A stretch of DNA of 41,997 nucleotides from the IMG/VR virus record IMGVR_UViG_2698536372_000019, positions 1 to 41,997 of that record; one strand, 5' to 3'. The translations under genes and the position numbers were made by a program. Positions 1,218-29,963 of the stretch are shown here, in pieces (positions within the stretch are counted from its first letter, which is position 1; each line of letters opens with the position of its first letter). The DNA comes from a virus (lineage: Duplodnaviria; Heunggongvirae; Uroviricota; Caudoviricetes). The notes beneath the pieces were generated by a model, which did not search any database, was not told the DNA's origin, and saw nothing but the letters and a program-made list of their open reading frames with translations.

Positions 1218-1234
1218 CAATTTATTAGAGCAAA
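1218..1234 (-). promoter_or_regulatory. C1 operator-like site (Op51-like), 15/17 to ATTGCTCTAATAAATTT
   Basis: plus strand reads CAATTTATTAGAGCAAA. Confidence 0.6.
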
Positions 1235-1281
1235 TATTCATTCATTAAGCCATGCCAGAGCTTCATCAACCTGCGCTTCGT

Positions 1282-1282
1282 N
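1282..1282. other. assembly junction J1 (single n)
   Basis: n separates a pacB 3'-end fragment from the KilAC region of the next ant copy; reading frame is lost across it. Confidence 0.9.
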
Positions 1283-2247
1283 GCGTTGATGTATTGCTGG
1301 AACGGCACATTTTTACGTCCACCGGACGCTATCAGGATGCCGTTCTCCCGTAACCAGGCAAACAACGCGTTTTGCTTAAGCCCAACAACCTTTGCAAAAT
1401 TTCCAATCAGGATCCCCTTGGCCACTGATACCCGGTCGGCAAAATCGACTTTAGGGGCGGCGGCCACCAGCTGCTGATTTAGCTGGTGGGCTTTCTGTTC
1501 CAGAAGTTGCTTTTGTTCAGCCAGTTCGGCAGCCAGGCGCAGAGCTTCGGGAAGCGTCTGGGGGATTGCGATCGGTTGCTGTTCTTTTTGTCGGAAGTAG
1601 CTGTCTTCCAGTTTTTCAAAGAATGCCCACGCTTCATTTGTGTCCACGATCTTAGACATGCGTGCCGCTCCGCGCTCGGCCCAGAGAATTACCTGACTTG
1701 TATATTTGCTAACCAAGTGACTAATAGTCACTAGCCTTTTAAATTCCTTTAATTTTGAACCAGTTAAGAGATAGTAATGCTTACCTTCTTCAAAGCGATC
1801 GGGGTTGCGAGACAAATTTTTACGAATATTCGCTTCATCGGTCCCATACCCTTTAGCAAGAGTCTCAGTTGTCACTACACGCACTCCCAGCCATTCCAGA
1901 ACGGGAATTTCATCAGACTGATTCTGAACAACCACCAGCTCCGATTCCTGAACTGAAGGTGCATGAATTTTCTCTGATTTAACGTTAGTTGCTTTCATTC
2001 TGTGTGCCTCCTTGCGTGCTTCGGCTGCGACGGTTGCGTAATTCAGATGACCCTGTTCGAGCAGGTATTCGCGGATATCAGACAACAGGATACGGTGAAC
2101 CGCGTTCTTGTCCTTTCTCCGGTAAAGTTGTTTGGTGATCATGAAGTAGTTGGCAATAACGCCAGGTATATCCCTGGTGCTGATACAGATTGTGTGCTGT
2201 TCAATTGCCTCGATCATCTCTTCACGGGTGACTAATGACTTTCTCAT
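1283..2247 (-). CDS. ant: anti-repressor Ant, variant M1a, 3'-truncated at J1
   Basis: ATG 2247-2245 with GGAGGG RBS; N-terminal domain, ORF6N-like middle ...GYGTDEANIRKNLSRNPDRFEEGKHYYLL..., KilAC-like C-terminal region cut at ...NVPFQQYIN. Confidence 0.75.
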
Positions 2248-2465
2248 AGTCCCTCCTGAGCAGAAGCGTTAACAGGGAGGCACCAGTAACTGAGAGAATT
2301 GCGTGAATCAGTGGAAAAACGGGCAGAGAAAATACATGGGGCGTCAGGAAGCTGAGAGCGAGCCTCATCTTCTGTTGGTGCAATAACGAAGTGATAGTGA
2401 CGTTTTTGGCAGGAGTAAAAGCGCCAGATAAATTCAGGATGAGTTGGGGTAGGGATAGTAGCCAT
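2244..2465 (-). CDS. icd: Icd-like 73-aa protein (copy adjacent to pacB)
   Basis: identical to 678-899. Confidence 0.5.
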   Translation of the reverse strand: MATIPTPTHPEFIWRFYSCQKRHYHFVIAPTEDEARSQLPDAPCIFSARFSTDSRNSLSYWCLPVNASAQEGL

Positions 2466-28400: not shown

Positions 28401-28696
28401 GGGCAAACATTTTCTATTGGTTTATAGCCATTTTTACAAAGAACCATATGCCCCGCGGTAAAACATGGTGTTCCCCCGACGAGCACGTCAGGGGATTCGA
28501 TTTCCCCAGCCAAGACTTTTTTGGCAAGTTTTTTCATGTCGCCAAGGTTGGCAACATGGGGCCAGCGGAGCGCAAGAACGGCCGATGGAAAAGGCTCGAT
28601 TTCAGCAAACCACGCCGGACGCATACCCAACGGTTCCCAGGCAATACTCGCGGCTTCAATTCCACTGCAAACAGATCCATAGCACAGCTCTTTCAC
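25409..28696 (-). CDS. dmt: bifunctional DNA methyltransferase (N-terminal C5-cytosine, C-terminal Dam-like N6-adenine) interrupted by an intein; 1095 aa precursor
   Basis: C5 motifs: [26 protein letters not shown] (split by the intein), [28 protein letters not shown]; Dam motifs [22 protein letters not shown]. Confidence 0.8.
27443..28465 (-). mobile_element. intein (341 aa) with LAGLIDADG homing-endonuclease domain
   Basis: Cys at the N-terminus (CFTAGHMVL), block [17 protein letters not shown] motifs [12 protein letters not shown] and [12 protein letters not shown]-terminal VVHN followed by Cys +1. Confidence 0.8.
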
Positions 28697-29598
28697 TGCT
28701 TAGCCTCTCCGCCAAGGGCATTTACCAGAGCATCAACCAGGCACGAAATTTCACTGGTCAACAGGAAGAAATCTGCGTCCAGTCGCTGCGCAACATCTTC
28801 ACTATCAATATCAGAGTTCTGCTCAAGCAATTCATCCGCAAATTTGACGCTGGTAAGGCTGAAGTTATGGTCCAGTGTAAATTTAATGCGGTTCTGCCAG
28901 TCGAGTGCCAACTTAGTGACGAGCTTGCCAGCTTCCAGGTGTGTGGAAATTTCATCGCTTCCCAAATCCTGCTTTTTCACTCGGGCAATACCGCCATCCT
29001 CAAGCACTGCCTTAAGTTCTGCCGCATCCCCCATTTGAAATCCCTGTGGAGCACTACCATCACGTACCCAGTCGGTCAGCGTTAATTCAATGGGATTTTC
29101 AACACTCAGGGGAACAGCAGGAAGAGAACCCAGAGACTTACGCATAAGCGCGAGCATATCCTCTGCCTGCCGCGCGCTGGCATTGATATAGATACGTTTA
29201 GTTGAACCGTCGTAGATCGCCTGGATAACAGAAAACTTTGAAAAAGCCCGTGGCAGAAGAGAATGCAGAACTTCGTCTTTCAGGGAGTCCTTCTCTGTTT
29301 TCTTCAGTTTACGCGCTTGTTCTTGCTCAAGTTTTTCAATTTTTTCTTGAATAGCTCGCTGGATAACCGGCGGGGGAAGAATTTTTGTTTCGCGCTTTGC
29401 TTCAACAAGGATAAAACCATTTCCATGCATAGCGATAACTTCAGAATTATCACCAAATGGCGATACAAAACCGAACTTGGCCATATCCTGACTACCGCAT
29501 GGCGTGAAAAGGATCATTTTCTTTTTATCTTCTAAGTCGGTCAGATCCGCCTCACGAGAAAGTTTATAAATAGTAATGTTTTTCCAGTGCTTAAACAT
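28693..29598 (-). CDS. hrdC: RdgC-like recombination-associated protein (P1 hrdC-like)
   Basis: [16 protein letters not shown]...[15 protein letters not shown]... resembles E. coli RdgC; start taken at the internal Met. Confidence 0.7.
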
Positions 29599-29947
29599 GT
29601 TGTAACCCTTGAATATCAACCACAGAAAGCTCGTCTTTGTAGAAAAAGGCCAGGTTGTGGCACCCCCTCGTTTGAGCGTATGAGCTGGGACCAATTTCGT
29701 TCTTCCAGACAAATGGCTTCAAATCCGTACGGCGAAGCATAAAAACGCGATTTATTCCGCTCTGATTCCCAATGAGGCAAAAGCCTTCTTTCACCTTGAT
29801 AGCCTGCAAGTTGTCGAGTTCACCGCTGGTTACACGGCTATCGAACTCTTTGCGGCTTATTAGCTCCATCTGCATCTGACGACTCCAAACAAATGCCCAT
29901 TGAAGGGCGATGGCTGAATGGTACCGAAAATACGACATAAAAAACAA
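29591..29947 (-). CDS. hypothetical 115-118-aa protein
   Basis: ORF abutting the C1 operator; weak RBS. Confidence 0.3.
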
Positions 29948-29963
29948 TATTTATTAGAGCAAT
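29947..29963. promoter_or_regulatory. C1 operator-like site (16/17)
   Basis: ATATTTATTAGAGCAAT. Confidence 0.65.

Follow-up and report, generated by a model that had tools for sequence, protein, structure and literature searches.

Where is a phage repressor encoded when its operators are in view and its gene is not? This question is raised by a DNA stretch of 41,997 nucleotides from a virus of the Caudoviricetes (IMG/VR record IMGVR_UViG_2698536372_000019, positions 1 to 41,997), the whole of which we refer to as the window in the following. An original prediction, made from the letters alone, had listed nine sites in it that resemble the operators of C1, the repressor of phage P1, had noticed no open reading frame (ORF) resembling C1, and had concluded that the repressor had to be supplied in trans by DNA beyond it. 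Our analysis makes it highly probable that these sites are the dispersed immC C1 operators of a P1-like plasmid-prophage, and that c1 lies just beyond the left edge of the window. The nature of the sites and the placement of c1 outside the window were thus judged correctly, whereas the need for a repressor acting in trans was overstated, the gap being, most probably, an effect of the window boundary. The finding is real but ordinary: what the window displays is the already-known C1 regulon of P1.

In P1, C1 binds 22 dispersed asymmetric operators with the consensus ATTGCTCTAATAAATTT, and Lxc strengthens this binding by forming a ternary complex; late transcription is shut off when lpa is repressed, C1 is counteracted by Coi and Ant1/2, and C4 RNA prevents ant from being expressed (PMC8546580). 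The consensus used in the original prediction is exactly that of the 14 curated C1 operators (protein_bind features of AF234172) in the 53-94.8 kb region of P1. When up to three mismatches to it are allowed on both strands, the window yields 12 matches, compared with 0.24 expected from dinucleotide-preserving shuffles. All nine predicted sites are found at their positions (Table 1), including three perfect 17-mers (12324, 19762 and 25402), of which the shuffles would lead one to expect none. Likewise, a log-odds position-weight matrix built from the 14 curated operators detects 13 window sites of at least 14 bits, compared with 0.45 in shuffles, and the operators described here score 17.2-26.7 bits, as against 8.3-26.7 bits for the curated P1 sites. 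The list of nine was correct but incomplete: it lacked 25391(+) (23.5 bits), 12402(+) (17.2 bits) and 13697(+) (23.0 bits), and the gene for the co-repressor Lxc/Bof, which the window also carries, had been overlooked. Two weaker matches, at 3576-3592 (+) in pacB (12.4 bits) and at 20817-20833 (+) at the ban/dbn junction (14.3 bits), were rejected as operators; they are weak, lie within coding sequence and are identical in P1, where they are not curated as such.

Most of these sites have named counterparts in P1, i.e. they occupy orthologous positions beside the promoters and genes of P1 operators; this holds for Olpa, Obanab, Odmt, Oref, Omat and the Oc4-type sites. Within 45 nt on either side of Olpa, Obanab and Odmt, the window differs from P1 by 1-3 mismatches over the 107-118 nt compared (Olpa: 3 in 107). 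The assignment of 6090 to lpa was borne out as Olpa. By contrast, 25402 had been taken for a feature of the dmt 3' end, but is one half of the bivalent operator of the ban operon: the perfect 17-mer on the minus strand and its partner Obanb at 25391(+) are inverted with respect to each other and overlap by 6 bp, as befits a bivalent operator. Similarly, 29947 does not serve the 'PAAR-like' (upfC) operon, as had been proposed, but lies on the Pdmt side of the divergent region, where it overlaps the -35 element of Pdmt, a promoter that reads into uhr-hrdC-dmt (29875 down to 25409) and not into the divergent upfC. Oref is present although the ref gene is absent from the window, and Omat differs from its P1 counterpart at a single base. 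To Olpa, Obanab, Odmt and Oref, the published evidence from P1 would apply only by virtue of 17-mers that are the same in the window and in P1.

The surroundings of the sites lead to the same element. Judged by its sequence, the window is a P1-like (Punavirus) phage-plasmid of ~42 kb in an orientation opposite to that of the P1 reference; in megablast searches, it falls in the P1/P7 group, and it shares collinear blocks with P1 at 97-99% identity. Collinearity with P1 is lost at 9.2-19.8 kb of the window, and the P1 segment 73.7-85.3 kb, ~12 kb with tail and pmg genes (5, 6, 24, 7, 25, 26, pmgL to pmgS and pap), is absent between window positions 10540 and 19832. Because this segment is outside the window, so are its operators O26, Oppp, OpmgRa/b and OpmgT.

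As predicted, no ORF of the window resembles C1: tblastn searches with P1 C1 and Coi yielded no homolog in any frame of the window (best E 0.9), a result that rests on tblastn, since the Pfam models used gave no match to P1 C1 itself. The gene order in relatives would account for this absence. In P1, pacB and c1 lie on opposite strands, with 25 nt from pacB to the start of c1. RCS47, CP027575 and pE2865-1 carry an operator-c4-icd-ant module between the two genes, an insertion known from RCS47 and pTZ20_1P (PMC6906374); there, 32 nt separate the end of c1 from that of ant, and c1 is followed by coi. A further plasmid, pAUSMDU00014361_02, has c1 and coi at the matching end. The left edge of the window cuts into just such an ant gene, ~680 nt from its start, and window positions 1-720 differ from the ant of CP027575 by 2 mismatches; in this alignment, c1 stops 471 nt and starts 1,323 nt to the left of base 1. 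Furthermore, among contigs with an identical PacB, which is listed in 17,150 blocks, we read eight, all of the P1 type, and in each of them the next gene is c1 (283 amino acids, PF27008). The C1 of a relative is identical to that of P1 at 281 of 283 positions, so the same operator specificity is to be expected. The window thus probably lacks c1 because it ends ~0.5 kb short of the place of this gene in relatives. Rather than being deleted or remote, c1 is predicted to lie on the same replicon, 471-1,323 nt to the left and followed by coi, provided that the replicon continues past the edge as its relatives do.

Some points weigh against this reading. The position of c1 to the left is predicted from relatives; the window has the look of a draft scaffold, such that the deposited sequence past its left edge may not be c1; and TTTGCTCTAATAAATTG, the half-site at 19746 and the site at 13697 are variants, i.e. 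predicted rather than established C1 sites.

The sites at 1218, 2784, 12324 and 19762 share a common setting, as each of them, by sequence comparison, is an operator of the Oc4/Op51 type that fronts one c4-icd-ant antirepressor module (A to D in Table 1). The original prediction had named c4/icd/ant among the genes downstream of its sites. It had, however, assigned 12324 to a late operon at 12601, while this site is the leftward-reading operator of module C and it is 12402 (Omat) that faces mat; and it had regarded the pair 19746/19762 as a feature of the dbn 3' end, while it is the operator of module D. The composition of the modules is that of known antirepressor operons: the four C4 RNAs score 69.6-75.9 bits with RF01695, whose gathering score is 45, the icd ORF overlaps the start of ant, Icd is 80-84% identical to that of P1, and matches to PF03374 have E values of 5e-18 to 4e-31. 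When modules C and D are aligned with P1, their operators match Oc4/Op51 and are equally distant from the conserved P1c4 promoter; they occupy the P51a position, with the downstream P1c4/P51b promoter retained (TTGATC-17-TATAGT in module D). Modules A and B have the operator, but a simple scan detected no consensus promoter in them. Matches to isrK, an Hfq-binding small RNA, occupy in these two modules the place of the c4-a1b1 target element of modules C and D. Complete O111-type relatives have a module at pacB/c1, c8/mat, pro/lyz and gene 5/dbn, each with an Oc4/Op51-type operator, and the type of module D is inserted in complete plasmids between gene 5 and dbn.

Module D is distinguished by its operator, a 33-bp palindrome in which 19762(-) shares one base with a second, inverted site at 19746(+) that has 3 mismatches to the consensus. 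With this 1-bp overlap and its 33-bp span, the pair is not a bivalent operator of the Op72ab/Op99ab type. The palindrome occupies the stretch that harbors P2c4 in P1; it is found in 14 IMG/VR stretches, and one module with an overall identity of only ~93% has it without any change. Module C has a degenerate inverted partner at 12308-12324 (10.7 bits). The C4 RNAs, in turn, vary in one short loop, which reads CACTAACG in P1 and CACAATCG, CATGTACG or CTTGGACG among the four RNAs of the window; these differences suggest separate specificities of antirepressor control. The C4 RNA of an IMG/VR relative has yet another loop variant. Two more ant 3' fragments, at 16640-17053 and 17462-18182 (-), flank a piece with c8 and Oref and have no icd, c4 or operator; a hairpin that resembles a terminator (GGCGGCC-loop-GGCCGCC and then a run of T; ~17435-17460) marks the switch from the region upstream of ref to that downstream of ant.

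The site at 13697 stands apart, as no counterpart was found for it among the curated P1 operators. It is located in what is left of the darB 5' end, upstream both of lxc (by ~170 nt) and of prt (by ~130 nt); the window has lost res, mod, ulx and most of darB, as has pAUSMDU00014361_02. The 5' end of P1 darB contains a weaker version, ATTGCCCTAATGTATTT, which is not curated as an operator. The arrangement of the site and lxc recurs with 99% identity in one complete plasmid, and it could place lxc or prt-pro under the control of C1.

Given that the operators of the window sit where those of P1 do, the logic of P1 can be applied to it. C1 would then act as it does in P1, as a diffusible protein supplied by the same replicon. 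It would bind each asymmetric 17-mer with the help of the Lxc encoded in the window, and would thereby occlude or flank sigma-70 promoters, such that lpa, the ban and dmt operons, ref, mat and the c4-icd-ant operons stay switched off in the plasmid prophage. That C1 binds these particular copies and represses there is what we infer from their likeness to the P1 sites.

The number and arrangement of the sites call for more caution than their identity. At its left end, the window carries a 1,566-bp tandem repeat (1-1241 repeats 1567-2807), the unit of which comprises the last 42 nt of pacB, the operator, the isrK-like leader, C4, icd and ant. At the junction, the truncated ant of module B is fused, at an N at position 1282, to the repeat of these 42 nt. 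The two copies differ by a handful of substitutions, up to a highly diverged central patch of ant that matches two alleles of this locus ('Ant' and 'KilAC') in different plasmids. A genuine recent tandem duplication is unlikely, since the copies are near-identical save for this patch, which corresponds to two different known alleles. The close relatives listed span only ~3.0 kb where the left end of the window has 4.3 kb, and they appear to carry one module; 1218 and 2784 may be one and the same site. Elsewhere, too, the runs of N (1282, 10541-10557, 11846-11848, 17056-17066 and 18183) all lie in or at the ends of ant modules, and they fall on the seams where segments meet in an order different from that of complete plasmids. 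For instance, window segments 12404-17053, 17067-17459 and 17426-18182 correspond to parts of one complete plasmid that do not adjoin each other, and no phage or plasmid record was found that is collinear over 9-20.9 kb of the window. The window is probably a draft scaffold, broken and re-joined at the repeated ant modules. In that case, the number and arrangement of the sites would partly be an artefact of assembly, with contigs mis-ordered at the ant repeats and two alleles set in tandem, and the true replicon would have fewer or differently placed copies, e.g. only one of 1218 and 2784. To this explanation we give slightly better than an even chance. It is countered by two N-free junctions that are genuine, namely that between the operator pair and dbn, seen in 23 complete plasmids, and that between operator, Omat and mat, seen in 41 complete genomes; moreover, recombination that is real could also result from the repetition of ant modules. 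In any event, the identity of the sites is unaffected, but copy numbers taken from the window are unreliable because it is probably a mis-scaffolded draft.

In a bolder reading, the O111-type lineage would have rewired the immunity circuit of P1 through three to four operator-fronted modules at different loci with C4 loops of their own, a perfectly palindromic double operator, and the 13697 site placed upstream of lxc. The palindrome, with its 16-bp spacing between centres, may have replaced the P2c4 region, the C4 loops may be specificity loops, and the res-mod-ulx-darB deletion may have brought 13697 upstream of lxc and the co-repressor gene under C1 control. As a whole, we regard this as a tentative and rather unlikely reading; the palindromic Oc4 of 33 bp, the C4 loop variants and the 13697 site are, by their sequences, minor novelties, i.e. 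variants of known parts.

It is very unlikely that c1 has truly been lost, and that the window represents a P1 derivative, defective or satellite-like, with operators silenced by the C1 of a co-resident P1-like plasmid. The absence of C1 and Coi homologs across 42 kb would agree with such a loss, as would the ~12 kb of tail and pmg genes missing relative to P1, and the presence of two alleles of ant at the left end could reflect two P1-like elements in the sample. Yet the left edge falls inside ant, at a point from which relatives reach c1 after 471 nt, and c1 resides beside pacB/ant in every relative examined; the missing tail genes, for their part, coincide with N seams, and therefore suggest scaffolding rather than deletion. 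Finally, the probability is negligible that the sites are chance matches to an AT-rich motif or belong to another DNA-binding protein encoded in the window, an idea with which the weak matches at 3576 and 20817 (identical in P1, uncurated as operators) would agree, but which is refuted, as regards chance and the strong sites, by the 50-fold excess over shuffles and by identity, site by site, with P1 operators that are curated and were defined by experiment.

Table 1. Coordinates of operators, module components, neighbouring genes and aligned segments in the window; assignments are predictions from sequence comparison.
Feature	Position	Strand	Remarks
Oc4/Op51-type operator, module A, TTTGCTCTAATAAATTG	1218..1234	-	2 mismatches, 19.5 bits; module of the pacB-c1 locus type; duplicate of 2784
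ant, module A, 5' 681 nt	1..681	-	cut by window edge; aligned with CP027575 and RCS47
icd-like, module A	678..899 (duplicate 2244-2465)	-	80% identity to P1 Icd (tblastn); RefSeq annotation of relatives
C4 antisense RNA, module A	954..1041 (duplicate 2520-2607)	-	Rfam RF01695, 75.9 bits
isrK-like leader, modules A/B	1066-1143, 2632-2709	-	RF01394, 60.8 bits
Oc4/Op51-type operator, module B	2784..2800	-	2 mismatches; 4 nt beyond pacB stop
ant, module B	1225..2247	-	ORF6N and ANT/KilAC domains; 3' end truncated
Oc4 (Op51) ortholog, module C	12324..12340	-	perfect consensus
ant, module C	10558..11582	-	ANT/KilAC; 78% identical to P1 Ant1; 3' end abuts N run 10541-10557
icd, module C	11579..11800	-	84% identical to P1 Icd
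C4 antisense RNA, module C	12054..12139	-	RF01695, 69.6 bits
a1/b1 target element, module C	12208-12260		RF03163, 53.2 bits
Palindromic double operator, module D, 33 bp	19746..19778	+/-	19762-19778(-) perfect, Oc4 ortholog; 19746-19762(+) 19.7 bits
ant, module D	18184..19227	-	ORF6N and ANT/KilAC; N at 18183
icd, module D	19224..19445	-	match to P1 Icd
C4 antisense RNA, module D	19493..19578	-	RF01695, 70.7 bits
a1/b1 element, module D	19646-19698		RF03163, 52 bits
Olpa (Op94), ATTGCTCTAATGTATTG	6090..6106	-	3 mismatches to ATTGCTCTAATAAATTT; 17-mer identical to P1
Omat (Op2b) ortholog, TATGCACTAATAAATAT	12402..12418	+	17.2 bits; upstream of mat (12454-13242)
Operator-like site, ATTGCACTAATATATTT	13697..13713	+	23 bits; darB 5' remnant between lxc and prt
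Oref (Op2a), ATTGCTCTAATTGATTG	17353..17369	+	3 mismatches to ATTGCTCTAATAAATTT; identical to P1 including P2ref flanks
Obanab (Op72ab), bivalent, 28 bp	25391..25418	25391(+)/25402(-)	identical to P1; overlaps dmt stop; controls ban operon
Odmt (Op68), ATTGCTCTAATAAATAT	29947..29963	-	1 mismatch to ATTGCTCTAATAAATTT; identical to P1
lxc/bof (immT), C1 co-repressor	13285..13530	-	98.8% identical to P1 Lxc
pacB, terminase subunit	2804..4288	-	neighbour gene of c1 in P1 and relatives
lpa, late promoter activator	5567..6019	-	Pfam PF25716, 193 bits; collinear with P1; master switch for late genes under C1 repression
Block collinear with P1	2806-9168		P1 93204-86842
Block collinear with P1	19832-22552		P1 73650-70924
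Block collinear with P1	24661-27442		P1 69423-66643
Block collinear with P1	28463-41931		P1 66645-53177
Segment in one complete plasmid (L005)	12404-17053		L005 3955-8603
Segment in one complete plasmid (L005)	17067-17459		L005 3001-3394
Segment in one complete plasmid (L005)	17426-18182		L005 8150-8910

Apart from the operators, a few differences from P1 were observed. Window positions 9168-10372 hold RCS47-like genes where P1 has upfM to pmgV. Four tRNA genes (Rfam) are found at 22471-24735 (-), where the homologous region of P1 has three annotated (Asn, Thr and Ile); the tRNA cluster of pE2865-1 has an additional tRNA-Tyr. The dmt ORF (25409-28696, at maximum 1,095 amino acids) includes ~1 kb, window positions 27442-28463, that P1 dmt does not have, and the Dam-family gene of pE2865-1 is likewise longer.

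Since the 'missing' repressor is most probably a window-edge effect, it matters little as originally posed. The case nevertheless indicates that windows of P1-like elements that contain operators only should be read together with their pacB-proximal flank. It also draws attention to the fact that common Escherichia coli plasmids of the O111 type, as found in Shiga toxin-producing strains, carry several antirepressor modules under C1 control, the C4 loops of which differ, and this multiplicity may be of consequence for heteroimmunity and for induction between P1-like elements that reside together.

How, then, does the window compare with known systems? With the immC regulon of P1, it shares the consensus, the positions of the operators relative to the same genes and promoters, and lxc, and the C1 of its relatives is 99% identical to that of P1; it differs in that c1, coi and Oc1a-e lie outside, and in the extra strong site at 13697. 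Like the bivalent operators Op72ab (ban) and Op99ab (c1), the pair at 19746-19778 consists of two inverted 17-mers set tail to tail. The former, however, overlap by 6 bp over 28 bp with centres 11 bp apart, whereas the latter overlaps by 1 bp over 33 bp with centres 16 bp apart. Modules C and D share 79-88% identity with the immI region of P1/P7 (Op51-P51a/b-c4-icd-ant1/2) and likewise combine C4 RNA, a1/b1 targets, icd and ant with an operator at the Op51 position. Unlike immI, whose canonical place is the sim-kilA locus, the modules of the window, four in all, lie elsewhere, and the C4 loop differs from module to module; in module D, the second inverted operator takes the place of the P2c4 region of P1, and modules A and B are only ~70% identical to immI and have an isrK-like leader. 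Finally, the ant module between pacB and c1, as at the left end of the window, is found in RCS47 and pTZ20_1P (PMC6906374) as well as in the E. coli O111 plasmids pE2865-1 (AP018809) and CP027575. The window differs from this group in that its pacB-proximal module appears twice in tandem and in that, compared with every complete plasmid examined, segments are permuted or missing in the window. The group also has ant modules at c8/mat and gene 5/dbn, and its nucleotide identity to the window is 95-99%.

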